Shown here: one piece after another, positions 8,201 through 56,383 of the stretch
How positions within the stretch are numbered: the first letter of the stretch is position 1
Layout of the letters: every line of letters starts with the position of its first letter
Assembly (NCBI RefSeq): GCF_022045235.1
Contig: NW_027266270.1
Coordinates: 4,278,001 to 4,342,000, forward strand
DNA length: 64,000 nucleotides
Source: Haliotis cracherodii
Lineage: Eukaryota
Direction of reading: 5' to 3'
Position numbers and translations under genes: made by a program
Notes under the pieces: model-generated
What the model saw: only the letters and a program-made list of their open reading frames with translations
Databases searched by the model: none
What the model was told of the DNA's origin: nothing

Positions 8201-9827
8201 CACAAAATGAGTTGTGTCAGTCCTAATTTCTGAAAATCAGAAATTTATCATGATGAGAGGTAGGGTTAAAACCCTCGTAAGTTCTGCTTTGTCTGTTAAA
8301 GTGAGGCTGTAGGACAATCTCCCCTTCACTCTGTGTAATGTAAGGTCTTTGATCAGGCTCAGGCTTGTTACGGGCAGTTCGCCGTGTGAATGTAATCCTC
8401 CTAACACACGCCGGCTTGGTGTGATTCTGAAGTACTCACAGAAAAGTGATATGTCATAATCGATCATGATTGAAGAGTCTTAAAGTTTCGGATTTTAATA
8501 CCTGTTGGTTAAATATTAAAGATTAAGATTTTGAAATAGGACGACAGTAATAAATGTCATGTGCTAAAAAGAGCGTTGAAATATCTAAAAATACAAATTT
8601 ACATTTTGACTTTGTAATTCGGTTTGAAGAGACTAATTGTGATTCTGTTAGAGTTTGTGTCATTAATCAATTTTCATGTGAAACGTTACACCCTCCTGTC
8701 TAATCACGACTACTATACATATAATCTGACTGGTAAATAATTCAACTCAACAACAAATATATATCATGCTTATAACACCCGTGGTAGACACCGTTCACCC
8801 CGAAAGGCCTATCAGTAAAAATTGACTTACTTCTAGCTGACCATACGCTTTAAAGCAAACAAATGGATAAGCCAGTCCTCAGGAGCTACAGCCATAATAT
8901 CATTATTGCCATTTCCTGATCCATTCCTATTGGATATAAACCAACGTTCTAGTCATAAGTGTAGACACAAATCCCAAACGTCTAAGAAACGTTTTAGAAG
9001 CAGGCATAAAGCATTATCACCGACGAGCATCGCCCTCAACTTGCCAGAACCTTCCCCTAAGGAACGTCAAGATGTAGCGGAAGTTCTAAAGAGGTATAAT
9101 GTCCAGATTCACAACGAAGGCCTTAGTACAATGTCCCAGATTGGCATCCACAGAACAATGGTAGCATTGTGGGGAACATAGTGATCATTTTGTACCACAC
9201 AAAACATCAGAAACATTCCCGGTTGACAGCTGCCTGGAACTTTTACGCCAAATTTGATTCCACTCTTACCACAAGAAATATGTTCAAGAAACCATACAAT
9301 GTTTCAACGTCAAATGGGATTTTTCTTTGAAAGTAGCATTTAATTTGGCATCAGACTCTCTCCTCGAGAAGCGAAATGTAATGAAATTAACTTCTGGAAA
9401 CTAATGGGCAGTGTATACAGATGCACATAGGGCATGCCAGAAGCTTGTAACTATATATATCACTTTGTCAATGAATGAGCGTCCATATATCAACGCCTGA
9501 ACACTTATTGTAGAATACCCATCCACTTCGCCTGAAAGAGTATCCGAAAAGACGCTGATTTGAAAATCATGCACTCCTTCTGAAAGCCTCACATATACTT
9601 TTACAGTGTCTGTGAAATCTCCAGTTGTGGAGTAATATTCCATCAGCTCCGGCCTTTGGTGTCTACATTTCAAAACGTGTAAGGTACAGTCAAGCATTCC
9701 CTTTCTATGAACATTTCAAAGATCGTAAAACGAGTCTTGCTTAAAATTTGTTTGATCAAGTTTACAACATTCATGACCTTAGTGAGGCTTTCAAAACCTA
9801 TTGAGGGTCAGAGCCGTACAATGGACT

Positions 9828-11006
9828 AGAATCGGAACCTTTTGTCATCCACCCGGGACCCGCCAAGTCAGCCACGTTGACAGGTACACGCCATACACAT
9901 GTCATGATAACTCAGATATGCCGTATCGCATTATTATATGCACTTTGCTGCTGACTGCGCACCTTTCGTTGTCCGCATTACTGATCAGTAATCAATATGT
10001 ATTTTTGAATCTGATATTTGATCACTTCACGGCGACAGAAACTACATTCTTTTGTGTCTCATGTGACGTCACCAACCCGAGTTGTGACCTAGTTTTGTCA
10101 CCGAATCTTGCCTCACCTGCACGTGAAAAGTGTTTCCTTGGGGGTGACGCGATTCCCGTGGGAGTCATAACACAGCTCCTACTGTGCTCTAACGATATAG
10201 AGACAAATCCAGGCCCAATAACTCTCCAAGAAGTACAGGAGAAAATACTTGCAGAAATAGGGAGCATGAAATCGGAGTTACGAAACGTCAAAGCAGATTT
10301 AAGCACACAAATTTTAGAACTAAAGAATGACATCCACACTATCAGTTCTAAATGTGAAAAACTGGAGGAATCTGTTACAGAATTACATCGTGATCTAAAC
10401 ACTATGAAACAGAACCATGATATAATGTATGATGACATTGATGCACTTTCAGGCAAGGTGGATACAGTGTTTGATCAGATGTCAAAAATTGATCACGAAC
10501 TAGATAGACTTGAGTCCTATAGCAGACGTGATAATATCCTCATCCACGGAATACCGGAAGCTGCAGGCGATGAGAAATCAATGGCATGTAAAGATACTGT
10601 GTTATCCGTCCTCAATGAACATGCTAAATTCAAAACGTGGCAACCATTGGACATAATACGTGCGCACAGACTTGGCGTTAAACGTGTAAATGCAAATCGC
10701 CCTCGCCCAATGATTGCTAAGCTACACTCGTCTGACGACAAAGTTCGTACATTGAAAGCGAGACCCACATTCAAGGAAGGGGGACTCGGAATTTCTAGTG
10801 ACCTAACGTCACGTCAGCGTCAACAGCTTCAGGCACTTAAGGGAACAAACACTTTCGGGTATTTCAAAGATGGTCGTTTGGTAACAAAACCCCGCACCAT
10901 GGAAACAACATCAACAACGTTTAGCACTTCAAACACGACACGAGGAAGCCGATCTTCTCATAGAAGAACGGATGGAACAACAGTGTCACATGCTTCTATC
11001 AGCTAG
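9828..11006 (+). CDS. LINE ORF1: hydrophobic leader + 2A-like peptide + coiled coil + L1-ORF1-like RRM domain (5' end probably truncated; first in-element ATG at 9918)
   Basis: Heptad-rich segment LQEVQEKILAEIGSMKSELRNVKADL..LDRLE, then YSRRDNILIHGIPE, RAHRLG..RPRPMIAKL and GISSDLT, typical of L1-type ORF1p. The ORF-track start at 9801 lies in host DNA. Confidence 0.88.
   Translation, partial: RIGTFCHPPGTRQVSHVDRYTPYTCHDNSDMPYRIIICTLLLTAHLSLSALLISNQYVFLNLIFDHFTATETTFFCVSCDVTNPSCDLVLSPNLASPAREKCFLGGDAIPVGVITQLLLCSNDIETNPGPITLQEVQEKILAEIGSMKSELRNVKADLSTQILELKNDIHTISSKCEKLEESVTELHRDLNTMKQNHDIMYDDIDALSGKVDTVFDQMSKIDHELDRLESYSRRDNILIHGIPEAAGDEKSMACKDTVLSVLNEHAKFKTWQPLDIIRAHRLGVKRVNANRPRPMIAKLHSSDDKVRTLKARPTFKEGGLGISSDLTSRQRQQLQALKGTNTFGYFKDGRLVTKPRTMETTSTTFSTSNTTRGSRSSHRRTDGTTVSHASIS
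10176..10217 (+). other. 2A-like StopGo (ribosome-skipping) motif LLLCSNDIETNPG/P
   Basis: GAT ATA GAG ACA AAT CCA GGC CCA at 10194-10217 is an exact D(V/I)ExNPGP match, in frame with ORF1 and preceded by a leucine-rich tract. Confidence 0.85.
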
Positions 11007-14000
11007 GATATCGGCCGAGGCCCGGATAGTTTTTCGCAAGATCCTAACACTATCAACACCGGTGTTACGTTAAACGCTGATTGTCCAAGCGAAACATTCA
11101 CCTTTCTAAGTTGGAATATTAATGGACTTCGAAACAAAATTGATGATGCTGATTTTATATCATACTTACAACAATTTAAAATAGCATGTCTTGTGGAAAC
11201 TTTTGTCGACTGTAGTTTTGATAATAGCTGGTTAGTTGGTTATGATATCTATTATAGTCCAGCAATAAAATTATCTGACTACGGAAGGCTGTCAGGTGGT
11301 ATTTGTGTATGTGTCCATCAATCCGTCAGTAAATTTTGTAAGTTAATTAAATCAGATGTAGATAATCTCCTGTGCTTGAACATATCAAAAGTGTTACTTA
11401 CAATTGACAAGAACGTAAACTTGCTATGTACATACATACCACCAGCTGGTTCGCCGTATTATAACCATGCGGTCTCAAATTGTTGTATTGATCATCTTGA
11501 AGAGTTTATGTTAGATAATCAGTCGCAGCTTAAAGATTCTATCAGTGTAGTCTGTGGAGATATGAATGCTCGTACTGGTCAACAAAACAATCCTCTAGTC
11601 GATATACAAAACGATTTTGTTCATAGTAACTGTTCATACCCAGAAGATGAAAACGTATGTGTTGGAGATCGGAAATCCCATGACACCGTTATAAATAAAT
11701 TTGGTCAGATACTGCTAGATATGTTGTATACATTTCAGTTGTTCATTGTCAATGGGAGAGTGTATGGGGATACCCTTGGAGAATTTACCTATTGTGGAAA
11801 CCAAGGTGCGAGCGTTAATGATTATTTTATATGTTCCCCCGATTTCTTCGATTATATTAAGATGTTGAATATTGGCGATCGTCTAGAATCTGATCATTTA
11901 CCTTTGGAATTGACCTGTAAGTTCCCTCATATGAATCAAACACATACCAAATTAATATATGAGGGTGTCACTAAGAAGAAACTAATATGGAATGAAGAAC
12001 TTTCGAACAACTTTCTAAGCAAACTACAAGAAAGTATAACATATTCTAAACAGTTACTTCTAGATAAACTTGATAACAATATTGAGGGGGCAATTGATGA
12101 CTTTGTTGAAATTATGCTAACTTCAGCAGCTTGTATGAGAAAAGAATTAAAACTGAACATGGATAAAACTAAAACTTTTAATACTGGATGTAGAATCGCA
12201 AGGCGTAACGCCCGCAAAGCGCTGCGAAGATTTAGAACAACCCGTACTAGTCTTGACAGAAAAAAATATTGCGAAAGCAGGAATAAATATAAAGGTTGTT
12301 GTCGGAAATACAAATTCGATATGCGTAGACATAGACAAGACAAACTGAAAAAGTCTATTAACGACCCTTCAGCGTTCTGGAAACAAGTACGATCTCTTAA
12401 GAATAGATCTTCTGCTACAGATGACATAACAAAGTCGCAGTGGCTTAGTCATTTTAAGAAGGTTTTTTCAAATGATGCAATATTCACTATGGCAACTGAT
12501 GATATGCAAAATGATTTTAGTGTAAGCTACACGGATGTTGATGAAGTTCTGCTAGATTCACCCATTGTTGAAAACGAAATATTAGATGCGATAAATCACC
12601 TCAAGAAGGGAAAAGCAGCTGGTCCTGATGATGTAGTTATCGAAATGTTGAAGTGTTCTAAGTTTGAAGTTATGCCTTTTCTTTGCAAATGTTTTAATAA
12701 GCTATTTGAAAATGGTGTTTTCCCAAGCAATTGGTCATGTTCTATAATAATCCCCCTGCATAAAAAAGGAGACAGGAATGACCCAGATAACTATAGAGGC
12801 ATTTCATTAATGAGCATTTTAGGAAAAGTATTTACTACAATATTAAACAATAGAATTTCAAAATGGGCGACCATGCGTGATAAGATTCCTGAATTTCAAG
12901 CTGGCTTCAGAAAAAGTTATTCCACCGTAGATCATGTATTTACACTATATGCACTTATTCAAAAAACCTTGTCACGGCGTAAGCATAAACTGTATGTAGC
13001 ATTTGTAGATTTTAAAAAGGCTTTTGATTCTGTCAATCGCTTTAAGCTATGGACATGTCTACGAAAAACTGGTTTACGTGGGAAAATGTTTACTATTCTA
13101 AAATCAATGTATTCTAATGTGAGATCATGTGTTCGTTGTGGGGATAGTTTAACAGATTTCTTTGATTGTCCTTTGGGCCTAAGACAAGGCTGTATTTTGA
13201 GTCCGATCTTATTTTCATTTTTCATTAATGAATTATATTACGAAATAGCTGCCAGTGGTAAACATGGTATCCAAATGTTCCCAGATTGGATAGAAATACT
13301 AATGCTACTTTTCGCAGATGATGTCATTTTAGTGTCAGATACTGTTGTCGGCCTTCAAAGGCAATTAAATATTTTAAGTACGTACACCAAAGAATGGAAA
13401 TTATCCGTAAACTTGGAAAAAACTAAAATTGTGATCTTCAGAAAAGGTGGTCCAATAGCGTCGAAAGAGAGATGGTCATTCGATGGTCAGTTAGTCAATA
13501 TAGTAGATCACTACACTTATTTAGGAATCTGGTTCTCACACACAATGAATTGGAAAAAATGTGCCCTTGACTTGTCCTTGCGTGCAAAGAAAGCTTTAAT
13601 AAGTGTAATGTCTATTTCTCATAAAGTGGGATCGATGTCACCTAATATCTTCTTTAAGCTTTTCGATACCCAGATACAACCAATTTTATTGTATGGTTCT
13701 GAAGTATGGGGATTTCAACGTTATGACTGTTTAGAGAAGGTCCATTTATTAGCATGTAAAAAGTTTCTTTGTGTCGGATCTTCTACACCAAATTGCATGG
13801 TTTATGGTGAATGTGGTAGATACCCATTATATATTAATTCTCAGATCAGATGTTTAAAATACTGGTTTAAAATTCTTCATATGCATGAACAACGTCTCCC
13901 CAAATTAGCCTATAACATGCTTCTACATTTAGATAACATGGGAAAGAATACTTGGACATCGCATATAAGAAATCTTTTATTTTCGCATGGTTTTGGTTTT

Positions 14001-24000: not shown

Positions 24001-26097
24001 CTAATCACGACTAGTATACATATAATCTGCCTGGTAAATAATTCGACTCAACAACAAATATATATCATGCTTGTAACACCCGTGGTGGACACCGTTCACC
24101 CCGAAAGGCCTATCAGTAAAAATTGACTTACTTCCAGCTGACCATACGCTTTAAAGCAAACAAATGGATAAGCCAGTCCTCAGGAGCTACAGCCTTAATA
24201 TCATTATTGCCATTTCCTGATCCATTCCTATTGGATATAAACCAACGTTCTAGTCATAAGTGTAGACTCAAATCCCAAACGTCTAAGAAACATTTTAGAA
24301 GCAGGCATAAAGCATTATCACCGACGAGCATCGCCCTCAACTTGTCAGAACCTTCCCCTAAGGAACGTCAAGCTGTAGCGGAAGTTCTAAAGAGGTATAA
24401 TGTCCAGATTCACAACGAAGGCCTTAGTACAATGTCCCAGATTGGCATCCACAGAACAATGGTAGCATTGTGGGGAACATAGTGATCAATTTGTACCACA
24501 CAAAACATCAGAAACAATCCCTGGTGACAGCTGCCTGGAACTGTTACGCCAAATTTGATTCCACTCTTACCACAAGAAATGCGTTCAAGAAACCATACAA
24601 TGTTTCAACGTCAAATGGTTTTTTTCTTTGAAAGTAGCATTTAATTTGGCATCAGACTCTCTCCTCGAGAAGCGAAATGTAATGAAATTAACTTCTGGAA
24701 ACTAATGGGCAGTGTATACAGACGCACATAGGGCATGCCAGAAGCTTGTAACTATATATATCACTTTGTCAATGAATGAGTGTCCATATATCAACGCCTG
24801 AACACTTATTGTAGAATACCCATCCACTTCGCCTGAAAGAGTATCCAAAAAGACGCTGATTTGAAAATCATGCACTCCCTCCGAAACCCTCACATATACT
24901 TTACAGTGTCTGTGAAATCTCCAGTTGTAGAGTAATATTATATCAACTCCGGCCTTTGGTGTCCACATTTCAAAACTTGTAAGGTACAGTCAAGCATTCT
25001 CTTTCTATGAACATTTCAAAGATCGTAAAACGAGTCTTGCTTAAAATTTGTTTGATCAAGGTTACAACATTCATGACCTTAGTGAGGCTTTCAAAACCTA
25101 TTGAGGGTCAGAGCCATACAATGGACTCTGCTTTTATTTTTCTTATGGAAAGTGTTTTGTCCTTAGATTTATAATTTGAAGTAACCAGTTTGTTTGTGAC
25201 AGAGATACGAATATAAATTAAGCAAGTGTCTTAACGTTTTAGAGCAATAATATAAACTATCATGGAACATGATATATAGACATCCATGCATTGCCAACCC
25301 CAGAGATGAGCATAGTGGATTTAACTTGCTGTGGTATATCAGAGGTCCAACATCATGGAAATAACAGAACAATAGATCGATTCAATTATTAAAGCCATCC
25401 TGGCGTACACTGTTATACTATATTGTAACTATTAACAGATATGTATTGAAAGCTGGTGAACAGATTGCCTTCCCTTACATCCCTATTCATAAACCCTATG
25501 CCCTCTGTTGTATGCTTCCGCTGGACCCCGTCAGCCCGGTCCCAAGGGCTTCAAGATTTATTGATAGTAGTGGTGTTTAGATAAACCCTTAGCACTGAAA
25601 CAAACGGCCTTTCATCTCACAAGAAGACCGCTATTTGTTTGACTTCATATATCCTGTATTATGACTTATCATAGCACCAGTGGCATCTTGAAGTGCAGGG
25701 AGTGCTCGGGTATTGTCCAAATGCCGATGGTCAACGGCTTATGCCAATAACAAAACATTAGTGCGGTCTCAGGGGCATCATATTGATGCGCGGAACATCG
25801 TCACGTCTGTGGTGACTCGTTTGTAGAATTTTTGATTGGCTATGTGCGTGACAGAGTGTCTGTTGGAATGTCTTTACCTGTTTTAAATAACTTTATAGAT
25901 ATATTTGAAGACACAATTAAGACGTCATAGAAAAACCATTATGTCTGCACAGCGAGATTCTGTTTGTTGGACGTAACCAAATTAATCGTATTTATGACTT
26001 ATATTCTTTGTTGTTATCACTTGTCATACGTTCTGGGGAGATATTGCATACAACGACACCTCGTCAGTCCGGACCTTACCGTTCTCAGGGAAATCGT
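21061..26097. repeat. Tandem segmental duplication, copy 3
   Basis: Colinear with copy 2 up to ACCGTTCTCAGGGAAATCG at ~26097. Identity drops sharply after ~25973. Confidence 0.95.
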
Positions 26098-28290: not shown

Positions 28291-28535
28291 CTGTCGTAAG
28301 CCTAGTGTTGGAATATCACATGCGTCATCTGTAAGATAGATCGTCATTTTTGTTTTGGAATTTTACATATGGCGTTTGTAACATTGCTCGTCATCATAGT
28401 GTTGTATTCTTATGTGTGTAATATTCCTCGTGATTATATTTTGACTTATATGATATGTCTCCCGTGTTAGCTCAGTAGAACAATTGACTTGCCTTTGCTT
28501 GTGTGTGTGACTTTTTGTTTGTTACAAGTGAGAGC

Positions 28536-29109
28536 ATGGTTGTTATTATATAGATATGTGTTATCAGATACCAGTGTAGTTGTAATAATATTCATGTGTG
28601 TTGTCAAATACTAGTATTGTTGTTATCATATACATATCTGTTATCAGATACTAGTATTGTTGTTATTATATACATATTTGTTATCAGATACTAGTATAAT
28701 TGTTATTATATACATATTTGTTATCAGGTGCCAGTATGGTTGTTATTATATCCATATGTGTTATCAGATACCAGTATGGTTGTTATTATATCCATATGTG
28801 TTATCAGATACCAGTATGGTTGTTATTATATCCATATGTGTTATCAGATACCATTATGGTTGTTATTACATCCATATGTGTTATCAGATACCAGTATGGT
28901 TGTTATTAGATACATATGTGTTATCAGATACCAGTATGGTTTTTATTATATACATATGTGTTATCAGATATCAGTATGGTTGTTTTTATATACATATGTG
29001 TTATCAGATATCAGTATGGTTGTTTTTATATACATATATTTTATCAGATACTAATATGGTTGTTATTATATGGATATATGTTATCAGGTACTAGTATGGT
29101 TGATATTAT
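28536..29109. repeat. 40-bp minisatellite, ~14 units
   Basis: Unit TTATCAGATACCAGTATGGTTGTTATTATATCCATATGTG. It abuts the Tc1 terminus at 29113. Confidence 0.95.
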
Positions 29110-29112
29110 CTG

Positions 29113-29904
29113 TACTGAACCGCAAAAGAAACGTCACCCCAAGCAACATTGCATGAAAAATTGTCATTTAAATATCTGTGTAATTTATGTCAAAGTTTCT
29201 AAAATTCAACATGACCTTGTCCGGAAAAATGAAATTTGAAGATAAAAAAAACCAAAAGCAAATGACAATAAAACCGATCATCCAAACGCATCACGGCAAC
29301 GGCAATGGTAACCCGATGCACATGAGTTCCGTGAAAATTGAAATGCACATGCGTTCCCCCATTTCTTGCCCTATAATAATCCACCCAGATCGGATGACAT
29401 TCATTATTGAATTGCTACCACATGCCAAGGTTGACAAGAAATCAGCGACACCAAGCTCTTGGACGATTGCAAGCTGGACAAACCGCCCGTCAAGTAGCCA
29501 ATGCGTTTCAAATCCACGTAAGGACCATATACAAGCTACGGCAACGGTACCAGACCACCAACAATACAGATGACCGACCACGTAGTGGAAGACCAAGGGT
29601 CAGCACCCGACGTCAGGATCGTCAGATTGTGCGACAGCATCTTCAAGATCGCTTTGTTACTGCTGCGGAAACTGCTCGGCAGACCATGGGGACACACCAG
29701 CGACAGATTAGTGCGGACACCGTGCGTCGACGATTGACGAGCAGACACCTCCACTGTCACAGGCCACACCGAGGACCCATTCTGACACCACGTCATCGCC
29801 GGGACCGTCTTCAGTGGGCAACACAGCACCAGCATTGGCGCCACCAGCATTGGAGAAGAGTCCTCTTCTCAGACGAAAGCCGTTACGTATCTCAACAGCA
29901 GATG

Positions 29905-29956
<52 letters not shown>

Positions 29957-30600
29957 TCTGGCGACGCCGTGGGGAACGTTATTTGGATGTTTGTGTTGTT
30001 GAGAGAGACTCATGGGGTGGTCCGTGCATCATGGTGTGGTGTGGAATTGGTCTTGCACAGGGGGTCGGCCCTGTGGTCTTCCAGTACATCGGTCCAGGGA
30101 GAGGGAATGGTGTCACAGCAGCTCGGTACATTGATCAAGTCATACCGCATTTGGCACGTCGCCGCAACAACGAGTTTCCGCATGATAACGCCCATGCCCA
30201 CACTGCGAAAGCAACAAGAGACTTCCTCCAGCAGAATGGCATCAGAAGCATGAAGTGGCCTGCCCTCAGTCCCGATTTAAATCCCATTGAGCACCTGTGG
30301 GACGGGATTCAAAGACGGCTGAATGACGTCTGACCAAGGCCGACAACTGCAGCTGAACTGCGTCAGGTGTTCCTCAGAGTGTGGACTCAAGTGCCTATGG
30401 CCTTCACCAACCACCTCATCCATTCCATGTATCGACGTTGCACGACAGTCATCAATGCACATGGCGGACATACCATATGCTGACTTGTGATGCCATTTAC
30501 TCAGAGACTAGTGTTGTGTTTCACTTTAAGAACATTTGACACTTTAATGTCAACCTTTATGATCAGTTTTGCCAAGTTTCATCTTTTTAATATGTCTCAG
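29113..30600 (+). mobile_element. Tc1/mariner element, 5' TIR present, 3' TIR not found
   Basis: Terminus TACTGAACCGCAAAAGAAACG followed by a transposase gene. Confidence 0.85.
29422..30483 (+). pseudogene. Tc1-type DD34E transposase with internal (GA)n expansion and premature TGA at 30331-30333
   Basis: MPRLTRNQRHQALGRLQAG, DRPRSGRPRVS, VLFSDESR, PHDNAHAH, WPALSPDLNPIEHLW. Homology continues past the stop (PTTAAELRQ..LIHSMYRRCTTVINAHGGHT). Confidence 0.92.
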
Positions 30601-34914: not shown

Positions 34915-35176
34915 ATTATGTCCGATGCAATACCCTATTTTGAAATGTAACACATGTTCACGGTTCTTTCATGTGAACAGTTGACTTACCTTTGCATGTG
35001 TTTGTGACAGATGTCACCGATGGGCCAGGATACTCTTATCTTTTCGCGAACACCTACAATACTATTTGATAGTGATTCATAAACACATGCGCATGATATA
35101 ATCAGAATCGTTCAATAAACTCTGCTTTCAGCAGATATTTCTTAGGATTACGGAAATGGTTTGGTCGCATGTATTC
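34915..35176 (+). repeat. Unclassified dispersed repeat family D (other copies ~905-940, 28440-28512, 31195-31380, 33648-33712, 34015-34200 on +; 42585-42800 on -)
   Basis: Recurring blocks TGTCCGAT.CAATA.CCCTATTTTGA, GAACA.TTGACTT.CCTTTGCATGTG, ACTATTTGATAGTGATTCATAAACACATG and ACTCTGCTTT..A.AGA.AT...ATGGAAAGG.TTT.TC. Confidence 0.75.
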
Positions 35177-35177
35177 C

Positions 35178-35777
35178 TTGTGTTGGTAAATCGAGGGCAT
35201 GTATGCCCTAGTGATCATTGTGTTGGTATATCGAGGGCATATATGCCCTAGTGATCATTGTGTTGGTATATCGAGGGCATATATGCCCTAGTGATCATTG
35301 TGTTGGTATATCGAGGGCATGTATGCCCTAGTGATCATTGTGTTGGTATATCGAGAGCATGTATGCCCTAGTGATCATTGTGTTGGTATATCGAGGGCAT
35401 GTATGCCCCAGTGATCATTGTGTTGGTATATCGAGGGCATGTATGCCCTAGTGATCATTGTGTTGGTAAATCGAGGGCATGTATGCCCTAGTGATCATTG
35501 TGTTGGTATATCGAGGGCATGTATGCCCCAGTGATCATTGTGTTGGTGTACCGAGGGCATGTATGCCCTAGTGATCATTGTGTTGGTAAATCGAGGGCAT
35601 GTATGCCCTAGTGATCATTGTGTTGGTATATCGAGGGCATGTATGCCCTAGTGATCATTGTGTTGGTATTTCGAGGGCATGTATGCCCTAGTGATCATTG
35701 TGTTGGTTTATCGAGGGCATGTATGCCCCAGTGATCATTGTGTTGGTGTATCGAGGGCATGTATGCCCAAGTGATCA
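35178..35777. repeat. 40-bp palindromic minisatellite, 15 near-identical units
   Basis: Unit TGTGTTGGTATATCGAGGGCATGTATGCCCTAGTGATCAT, containing AGGGCAT-RT-ATGCCCT and TGATCA palindromes. Confidence 0.97.
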
Positions 35778-52405: not shown

Positions 52406-52594
52406 GGCAAATAGAGTGCTGGAGACCTATCATCACCCGGGTCTCCACGGGGCCTTATTCTGATGCTTCTCAATATATGACTTGCTACATACGGACGGGT
52501 TGACTGTTTTTTGACGGATTGGCTCGTGTGTTAAATAAGGTTTCACAATACTGATGCTTGTGTGTTCTCTGGCATTGACGTCTTATATTGACAA

Positions 52595-52996
52595 AAGGCT
52601 CGACTGCATTGATGCTTGTTCTTGTTGGCCGATATTTGACAGACTTACTCTTGTGTTACAGAAGGCTCGACTGCATTCATGCTTGTCCTTGTTTGCCGTT
52701 ATTTGACAGACTGACTCTTGTGTTACAGAAGGCTTGACTGCATTGATACTTGTCCTTGTTGGCCGATATTTGACAGACTTACTCTTGTGTTACAGAAGGC
52801 TTGGCTGCATTGATACTTGTCCGTGTTGGCCGATATTTGACAGACTTACTCTTGTGTTACAGAAGGCTCGACTGCATTCATGCTCGTCCGTGTTGGCCGA
52901 TATTTGACAGACTTACCCTTGTGTTACAGAAGGCTCGACTGCATTGATACTTGTCCGTGTTGGCCATTATTTGACAGATTTACTCTTGTGTTACAG
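52595..52996 (+). repeat. 67-bp minisatellite x6, each unit ending in a 3' splice site
   Basis: Unit AAGGCTCGACTGCATTGATRCTTGTCCKTGTTGGCCGATATTTGACAGACTTACTCTTGTGTTACAG. The AGs end at 52661, 52728, 52795, 52862, 52929 and 52996. Confidence 0.95.
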
Positions 52997-53035
52997 AAGG
53001 GTCCCCTGTTCCGTGGTCTAGCAGAAGGCCAAGTT

Positions 53036-54785: not shown

Positions 54786-55063
54786 AGGGGCTTGTTATCT
54801 CGACCTTATAGCTGGACTTGTTTTCTACAAATCTCAATGTCATTCTGTTCTGGTTTATGAATATGAAAAAACTATTTTTCAACGACACTGCGACCATGAA
54901 AAACAATAATCAAAAACACAATAAAACAACAACACACTGTCAGGAAACCGAATGTGTAGTTACAACATAGTACAAAATCCCAATATTTCATTTTCAACGT
55001 TCTAGGCGTAGATTAACGTATGACCTACGGTTCTATGTACTTCTTGTTGCAACATCGATGTTG

Positions 55064-55472
55064 CTGAAACGTCATTATTTCTGAAACGTCAGTGTCGTTT
55101 GAACGTTTTTATCACTGAAACGTTATTGTCGTTGAAACGTCATTATTACTGAAACGTTATAGTCGTTGAAACGTTATCATTACTGAAACGTTATTGGCGT
55201 TCAACGTTATTATTACTGAAACGTTATTGTCGTTGAAACGTCATTACTACTGAAACGTTATTGACGTTGAAACGTTATTATTACTGAAACGTTATTGGCG
55301 TTCAACGTTATTATTACTGAAACGTTATTGTCGTTGAAACGTTATTGTTACTAAAACGTTATTGTCGTTGAAACGTCATTATTGCTAAAACGTTATTGCC
55401 GTTGAAACGTTATTATTACTGAAACCTTATTGTCGTTGAAACGTCATTATTACTGAAACGTTATTGTCGTTG
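55064..55472. repeat. 33-bp higher-order minisatellite of alternating 16/17-bp subunits, ~12 units
   Basis: Alternating TGAAACGTTATTGTCGT and TGAAACGT(C/T)ATTATTAC. Confidence 0.92.
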
Positions 55473-56383
55473 AGAGACTGAGCTTCACGACACTATCCGT
55501 ATACAGAACCGAACTTAGCTCTTAACCGAAAGAGCGAAAGCTTTAGCTACAAGGCCACACCACCGCACCATTGTTTCAGATGGAGCCATTTACACACTCA
55601 AACCAACCACTCACTCCAAATTATCTCTGTCAGGTAATGTCAAAACACATAGATTGTACCGTGCCTATTACCTCTTAATAAGGTCAGTTTTACATTTTTA
55701 TCGACATGAATTCCTTTATCTCTTATAAAATCACAAGCGGTGTCCGGTCCATGGAATCATTGCCTGCACGTTAATGTATCGTTGCATTTTGCATAATGAG
55801 AGGCGGTTATCCTGAGGCCCAAGCGTCATTGTTCCATCATCGCGTGTAAATGCATTTGAACTGCCAGCTCTAATTTGTAGGTTTTGTTTCAGACGTGTTA
55901 AGATGATATTTGTGGACGAAGAAAGCGTGAAATGACATATGTTATTATTTCATCACAACAGAGTCTGTTTGATGGCGTTCTCATTCAGAACCAATGTGCT
56001 TCAGTATTGAAGTGTTTCCAGTGGAACTGTGTTTTAAGGCCGTTGGGTTCATGCTGAGATCTCTTTGAACCAGCTATCTTCAGTTCTATACTCCAACATA
56101 ATTTGGATCAATGTGGTTCGTCATCAATTTCTTATATATTCACTTATGCTTTCGTAAGTGACCCAAGAAAATGCCTGACTTTCTATCGCTAAACTAATTT
56201 TACCACGATGATAACAGGTTGATTTTCATTTCATATTTTCAAATATTAAGTTAAACTACATAGACAATATTATCTCAGCATTAAAGCCACTCCATTGTCA
56301 TCAACTGGCAATATATGACATCTTCTAATATATTCTACTCAACTTTGATAAGAATATTTCTATGATTCCACGACATACCAATA

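Follow-up and report, generated by a model that had tools for sequence, protein, structure and literature searches.

A mollusc LINE with an AUG-less ORF2 that may be translated by readthrough of the ORF1 stop codon

The window analyzed here is a 64,000-nt stretch of the Haliotis cracherodii genome (RefSeq GCF_022045235.1, contig NW_027266270.1, positions 4,278,001–4,342,000), and the features of the LINE described below lie on its forward strand. A long interspersed nuclear element (LINE) of the APE type occupies 9828–14603, as delimited by self-BLAST and empty sites, and is 5′-truncated a few codons inside open reading frame 1 (ORF1). The remaining part of ORF1 (9828–11003) comprises a hydrophobic N-terminal region, a 2A-like motif, a coiled coil, an L1-type RRM, a C-terminal domain (CTD), and a tail. 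Its 406-codon open frame is in the same frame as the 1171-codon frame of ORF2 (11007–14522, TAA stop), and AGC TAG at 11001–11006 holds the sole stop between them. We propose this single in-frame TAG (11004–11006, context UAG GAU) as a readthrough codon. ORF2 starts with a 34-codon linker, followed by the APE domain (from 11109), the reverse transcriptase (RT, with FADD at 13311–13322), and a C-terminal Cys/His knuckle-like motif (14280–14333). Pfam assigns PF03372 to ORF2 at 26.8 bits (cut-off 24.5) and PF00078 at 122.6 bits, above its cut-off.

A sequence-only reading of the window had held that ORF2 has no usable ATG, and this was borne out. Counted from the stop, SWNING starts at codon 35 (11109) and CLVET at codon 61 (11187); both align with N-terminal motifs of exonuclease III. 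The first in-frame ATG lies at 11508, codon 168 after the stop and beyond these first, essential APE motifs, and all nine ATGs between 11004 and 11508 are out of frame. The GTG at 11193 is in frame, as that reading stated, yet downstream of SWNING. ATG 11508 is also unconserved, being changed to TTG (A>T) in three organism-B contigs and replaced by Leu in the relatives L001 and P0003 described below. The upstream AUGs at 10972 and 10990 were rejected as ORF2 starts because both belong to the +1 frame, which ends near 11070, and because no such AUG occurs in L001. Reassignment of TAG in the host is improbable, as ORF2 uses no TAG codon versus 36 CAA/CAG codons. The sequence-only reading had also correctly described a frame that stays open past a single in-frame TAG, a UAG-G stop context, and a Thr/Ser-rich stretch ahead of the stop, which corresponds to the Thr/Ser/Arg-rich tail of ORF1 (10899–11003). 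The 34-codon run that stays open past the stop says little by itself (p = 0.17). Annotation pipelines would shorten or drop intact ORF2s in families with such a layout.

The stop is not private to this copy. TAG is conserved in contigs of organisms A and C, in the protein P0008, and in the distant L001, and a private nonsense mutation is therefore largely refuted. P0008, which is 89% identical to the window and ends at the same residue as ORF1, is apparently a decayed copy. Sequences of four runs were compared over 10300–11800. A 4981-nt organism-A contig spans this interval with two differences, neither of which affects the stop. An organism-C contig covers the stop; going by its change tally, T11004 and A11005 are unaltered, and one G>A is unlisted. 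In organism B, the stop is unchanged among the 40 of 211 variant rows listed, of which the weakest B-only row has a depth of 31 versus roughly 227 in that bin. Raw reads of run X18 barely cover the site (mean depth 0.82 in the stop bin). Among the same 40 rows, 10 variants fall in the interval from the stop to ATG 11508, of which 7 are synonymous and 3 non-synonymous, and 12 of the 17 variants in the ORF1 core are synonymous. At the loose ends of run X11 (11004 and 11019), two organism-B contigs agree with each other but diverge from the window immediately before the stop, and they rejoin at the region of the post-stop motif described below, which hints at an additional subfamily that has a different ORF1 tail.

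The same layout is found in L001, which is one locus out of 405 pattern matches in a second metagenome scan. In L001, ORF1 carries a 2A-like motif and is followed by one in-frame TAG; 14 ATG-free codons lead from there to the APE domain, and ORF2 contains a frameshift further on. The protein identity between L001 and the window is 45% in ORF1 and 53% in ORF2, and fourfold-degenerate sites are at background (28% of 39 identical in ORF1 and 23% of 142 in ORF2). The linkers differ in length, 34 codons in the window versus 14 in L001, yet the ORF1–ORF2 frame is kept in both. Among the 150 matches listed, only one protein, P0003, covers the ORF1 RRM together with the APE domain. BLASTP pairs the window stop with a Gln of P0003 (S-X-D-I-G-R-G versus L-Q-D-N-G-R-G), and this Gln may be either a CAG allele or the gene caller's reading of TAG. 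In a quick tree of the APE domain (71 rows), the window is grouped with P0003, L001, P0009, and P0010 with a support of 99, and P0003 is sister to the window. In the same tree, a well-supported sister clade of 17 rows contains many APE proteins called with acidic, Ser-rich N-terminal extensions of 65–280 residues. Scans of viral contigs with ORF2, A2, and A3 and a first metagenome scan found no relative. Three further candidates were dropped: L002, from a genome scan, is bacterial exonuclease-like, and L003 and L004, viral contigs matching the pattern of the 3′ untranslated region (3′UTR), have no ORF1/ORF2 similarity and were taken as chance matches.

Shortly after the stop, the window and L001 share a conserved 17-nt RNA motif (11012–11028 in the window), which we propose as a proximal readthrough element. 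The window reads TAG GATAT CGGCCGAGGCCCGGATA and L001 reads TAG CAATC CGGCC-AGGCCCAGATA, with GGCC starting 7 nt after the stop in both. The two versions are identical in 15 of 17 columns and differ by one 1-nt indel; neither the 40 nt preceding the stop nor the remaining linker can be aligned. This match was equalled by 10 of 20000 shuffles and by none of 4609 and none of 4793 non-homologous windows. Since the indel shifts the frame and alters the peptide between the families, with the frame restored before the APE domain, the constraint on the motif lies at the RNA level. In P0003, NGRGQI directly after the Gln is the best motif-compatible hexapeptide of the 89 in its linker.

The sequence-only reading had attributed readthrough to a GC-rich stem-loop after the stop. 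The GC-rich stretch holds, as it is the conserved motif itself, but the local hairpin is weak. A hairpin can be drawn at 11009–11028 but is no more stable than chance (–5.5 kcal/mol and z = –0.2 for 11009–11030), and the fold of 10980–11120 has a z of +0.43, with 130 of 200 shuffles as good; the local hairpin was rejected as the stimulator because of this ordinary stability. The further suggestion that TAGGAT pairs with ATCCTA (11041–11046) can likewise be drawn but has no counterpart in L001, and this helix was rejected as unconserved; the A of the L001 stop has a pairing probability of 0.06 or less in all four folding windows. No conserved local pseudoknot was seen after the stop, and an Rfam search gave no match for L001 and, for the window, a single chance match well under the threshold.

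The motif seems better explained as the arm of a long-range duplex than by a local hairpin. In BLASTN between the window and L001, the only shared stretch besides the coding matches is located in the 3′UTR and folds as a hairpin before AATAAA in both elements (14560–14583 in the window), and 14560–14576 is complementary to the post-stop motif. When the post-stop 22-mer was scanned against every position of its own element, the best partner in both families was this 3′UTR hairpin, about 3.5 kb from the motif and about 50 nt from the 3′ end. The reverse scan from the hairpin returned the junction, making the two sites reciprocal best partners in both families. The duplex energy is –22.3 in the window (next best –20.8 or –21.0) and –25.9 in L001 (next –20.6), with 14 and 15 computed pairs, respectively. 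Both motif substitutions exchange G and A opposite a U, and the unpaired loop holds the indel as well as the two bases that differ in the 3′UTR. Mononucleotide shuffles were as good in 77 of 5000 cases for the window and 0 of 5000 for L001; the corresponding counts for dinucleotide shuffles were 52 and 1 of 3000 for the UTR and 245 and 15 of 3000 for the junction. In the joint fold of L001, the duplex dominates, with most pairs at 0.94–0.99. L001 supports the duplex strongly, and the window does so modestly. The complementarity was noticed post hoc, after the data had been seen, and we regard the junction–3′UTR duplex, as a computed complementarity, as a good lead rather than a proof. The duplex and the 3′UTR hairpin are mutually exclusive structures.

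We consider that ORF2 is probably made by programmed readthrough of the ORF1 UAG, because ORF2 has no AUG, the frame is kept, the stop contexts are of, or close to, readthrough types, an RNA element lies 3′ of the stop, and P0003 has Gln at the stop position. Readthrough, as first proposed from the sequence, is the best explanation of a stop kept in copies and in L001; what did not survive is the local hairpin as its signal. The window context UAGGAU fits the type III contexts UAGGGV, UAGGUA, or UAGGAU (PMC13517186), and L001 is off that list. UAG CAA UCC of L001 agrees with five of six positions of the type I signal, CAR-YYA after UAG (PMC3159437), which GAU AUC of the window fails. In the proposed mechanism, most ribosomes would terminate at the UAG and release ORF1p, and a few would decode it by a near-cognate tRNA, presumably inserting the corresponding residue, to produce an ORF1p–linker–APE–RT fusion; readthrough would thereby set a low RT:ORF1p ratio. 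The conserved motif, 7–22 nt past the stop, may act as the stimulatory element, most likely via pairing with the 3′UTR hairpin 3.5 kb downstream if the duplex forms in cells. Only RNAs with an intact 3′ end would then make RT, and the 3′ end would switch between the duplex, for translation, and the hairpin, for template recognition in a presumed role in reverse transcription. 3′ stem-loops are template signals in stringent LINEs (PMC3747384). If true, the RNA switch would check transcript integrity, favor cis action, and separate translation from reverse transcription. A mollusc LINE lineage with a retrovirus-style ORF1p–ORF2p readthrough fusion, licensed by 3.5-kb pairing with an RT-recognized 3′ hairpin in a switch convergent with that of tombusviruses, is a tentative proposal that we stop short of calling probable.

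Since the long-range pairing could equally serve reinitiation, it decides nothing between readthrough and reinitiation. In an AUG-less termination–reinitiation, ribosomes held by the motif or the duplex would resume translation at a nearby codon, near-cognate or arbitrary, and ORF2p would be produced as a separate protein. Published work on LINEs describes reinitiation, in SART1 with a downstream structure and in mammalian L1, and calicivirus reinitiation tolerates non-AUG codons (PMC5972666). Near-cognate codons are available in frame in the window (ATC 11010, ATC 11052, and ACG 11067) and in L001 (ATA, ATC, and CTG), but no candidate start codon is common to both, and the ATA of the motif is in frame in L001 and out of frame in the window. 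Reinitiation needs no common ORF1/ORF2 frame, yet both junctions are in frame. The AUG expected from SART1 and caliciviruses is missing, with none in frame until 11508 in the window and none before SWN in L001. UGGGA, the core of the termination upstream ribosome-binding site, was not found by eye in the 90 nt before the stop of either family, and P0003 is called with a sense codon at the stop position. Reinitiation is the main rival to readthrough, but these points make it an unlikely, though not negligible, source of ORF2p.

Routes that change the RNA seem far less probable. If the TAG served as a 3′ splice acceptor, cut between TAG and G, ORF2 would be joined to an upstream exon that supplies an AUG and perhaps the 2A region. 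Pyrimidines make up 60% of the sequence before the window TAG but only 40% in L001; the Leu-Pro ends of the ORF1 relatives P0001, P0002, and P0007 allow pyrimidine-rich codons, and a CAG in P0003 would also serve as an acceptor. No joint ending at 11007 is among the 10 joints listed (10 of 39 loose ends, four runs, 10300–11800), and the 4981-nt contig, whose run may be RNA, crosses the interval without a splice; we regard splicing as very unlikely. Adenosine-to-inosine editing of UAG to UIG (Trp) in a share of transcripts would give the same fusion. UAG is a favored ADAR site, a helix can include the window UAG, and TGG stands at the stop in one organism-B contig. However, the contigs of two runs that we guess to be RNA (X2 and X16) show no A>G at 11005, as far as contigs, which drop rare variants, can reveal it, and the stop is unpaired in the L001 folds, so editing appears highly improbable. 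The TAG could also be an inactivating mutation in a single-ORF element, as the one fused relative, P0003 (one of the 150 matches listed), would allow, or ORF2 could have an internal promoter, like the minor promoter in the Tca2 junction (PMC2194720), with the motif kept for another job such as RNA circularization for reverse transcription. Both variants are quite improbable: the stop is common to P0008, the organism-A and -C contigs, and L001, ORF1 homologues otherwise seem to be separate proteins, as far as a weak search of 1850 candidates shows, and an internal transcript would still be without an AUG.

Several observations weigh against programmed readthrough and its long-range stimulation. 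Only two junctions are available as DNA, and the in-frame layout of L001 by itself has a 1-in-3 chance. Homologous coding windows equal the local alignment score of the motif in 3 of 18 cases in ORF1 and 14 of 63 in ORF2, and the argument for the motif thus rests on its location in an otherwise unalignable linker. P0009 and P0010, the sisters of L001, are called with a Met four residues before SWN, and should this codon be ATG, their family would have a start of its own. Many relatives at a greater distance likewise begin with Met just before the SWN motif. From these Met starts, the AUG-less layout may be limited to a subclade. Among the contigs, one of organism C has a 1-nt deletion at 10957, by which ORF1 and the TAG no longer share a frame, and one of organism B has TGG at the stop position; both may be decayed copies. 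In the joint fold of the window, a local stem at 11004–11088 outcompetes the duplex, which is only modestly better than controls in this element. No duplex pair is changed on both sides between the window and L001, and GGCC is self-complementary, which inflates chance pairing. The Tca2 retrotransposon of Candida albicans also has two ORFs with one in-frame stop and a predicted 3′ structure, although it is a long terminal repeat (LTR) element with UGA, and its similar-looking junction gave no readthrough in reporters (PMC2194720). This result also cautions that a reporter with the junction alone may overlook distal elements.

As for the first protein, the profile of alignment A1 matches the human LINE-1 ORF1p structures 2ykp/2yko (E = 7e-11), and the window ORF1 belongs to type II (L1-like), which is defined by a coiled coil, an RRM, and a CTD (PMC4120745). 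The putative 2A-like (StopGo) motif DIETNPGP is located at 10194–10217 and is preceded by SN. The canonical 2A core is GD[VI]ExNPGP (PMC3708506), and Asn occupies the position of its Gly in the window. D[VI]ExNPGP occurs in most N-terminally complete homologues of alignment A1. The region 9828–10217 before the motif is hydrophobic, and the homologues open with a common W/Y-R-x-x-I-G-x-F pattern. The two lowest-energy 60-nt folds of the whole element are at 10110–10210, right before the 2A-like motif (z about –3). The relatives P0001, P0002, and P0007, 52–69% identical to the window ORF1, all terminate with Leu-Pro before the stop. No fused longer form was found among 1850 candidate ORF1 homologues, a weak result by the search tool's own caveat.

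The LINE sits in the first of three tandem units of about 5.2 kb, and the other two units represent the empty site. This array (5723–26152) consists of units of about 5.2–5.3 kb that are 95–96% identical. The unit carries broken reading-frame fragments near 8800–9800, which we guess could be a decayed Penelope-like element, and a 120-codon frame at 24120–24479; Pfam gave no match. The copy bears the marks of target-primed reverse transcription, namely 5′ truncation, a 3′ repeat tail, and an ambiguous 4-nt target duplication. From the junctions compared with the empty sites, GACT at 9824–9827 is the left copy of this duplication, or a microhomology, with the right copy at 14604–14607, and it is ambiguous with the 3′ tail repeat. 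At 14585–14603, AATAAA is followed by a short CTTTGA tandem tail, and L001 likewise ends with AATAAA and a similar short repeat. Since P0001 extends nine residues further N-terminally before RIGTF in a protein comparison, we judge the window ORF1 to be cut a few codons into its 5′ end. The 4981-nt organism-A contig (run X2, record 14) ends by arithmetic at about 14605 and starts about 200 nt upstream of the 5′ truncation of the window copy, and could represent the element at full length. The LINE may resemble the RTEX (RTE-X) clade. The only named close relative is the Haliotis asinina protein P0007, in keeping with a gastropod host, and an Atlas search returned only unnamed APE-RT clusters. 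The supplement of PMC11203168 has similar gastropod RT sequences and no clade labels (0 matches to 'rtex'). Elsewhere in the window, a Tc1/mariner-type transposase frame (29398–30330; HTH_Tnp_Tc3_2 and DDE_3) contains a GA microsatellite, minisatellite arrays are located at 28518–29109, 35175–35777, 52496–53003, and 55059–55473, and many short dispersed repeats of 100–250 nt are present.

LINE ORF2 translation has been called an open question, and the described solutions are reinitiation or 2A (PMC3894237 and PMC3708506). We found no report of readthrough of a LINE ORF1/ORF2 stop or of junction–3′UTR pairing in the open full-text literature, which was mostly judged from titles and abstract starts, with subscription journals, Repbase, and supplements largely outside this scope. 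The proposal is a known recoding strategy in an element class where its description was not found. A LINE lineage with readthrough would add a third route to ORF2, and ORF2p would be covalently tied to a trimer-type ORF1p, like Gag-Pol. If the duplex is real, it would provide a physical mechanism for cis preference and for the exclusion of 3′-damaged RNAs.

The closest parallel to the long-range pairing is the RNA-dependent RNA polymerase of the tombusvirus carnation Italian ringspot virus (CIRV), where, as in the window, UAG-G precedes the polymerase and an element near the stop base-pairs, across about 3.5 kb, with a 3′-terminal replication structure in mutually exclusive folds (PMC3234231). 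The CIRV interaction between the proximal and distal readthrough elements was established experimentally in a plant RNA virus and involves a large proximal stem-loop with a pairing bulge, whereas that of the LINE is computed only, as a 14–15-bp duplex 7 nt after the stop. The gag-pol junction of murine leukemia virus resembles the LINE in having structural and polymerase ORFs in one frame, UAG-G between them, and an RNA element a few bases downstream, and its readthrough sets a low polymerase ratio; unlike the non-LTR element of the window, it uses an 8-nt spacer and a local pseudoknot (PMC3159437 and PMC13517186). SART1 and mammalian L1 are likewise bicistronic APE-type LINEs in which ORF2 depends on ORF1 translation (PMC5972666, PMC3894237, and PMC3708506), and SART1 requires an RNA structure downstream of the stop (PMC5972666). 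These elements have an AUG, in a UAAUG overlap or past a 63-nt spacer, and make a separate ORF2p, whereas the window LINE has neither the AUG nor the spacer. The 2A-bearing APE-type LINEs of limpet and ticks share the N-terminal 2A-like motif before an L1-type ORF1p coiled coil, and in the excerpts of their reports an in-frame stop between the ORFs is not described (PMC3708506 and PMC13405545). The window element would combine two recoding sites, the 2A-like motif and the stop.

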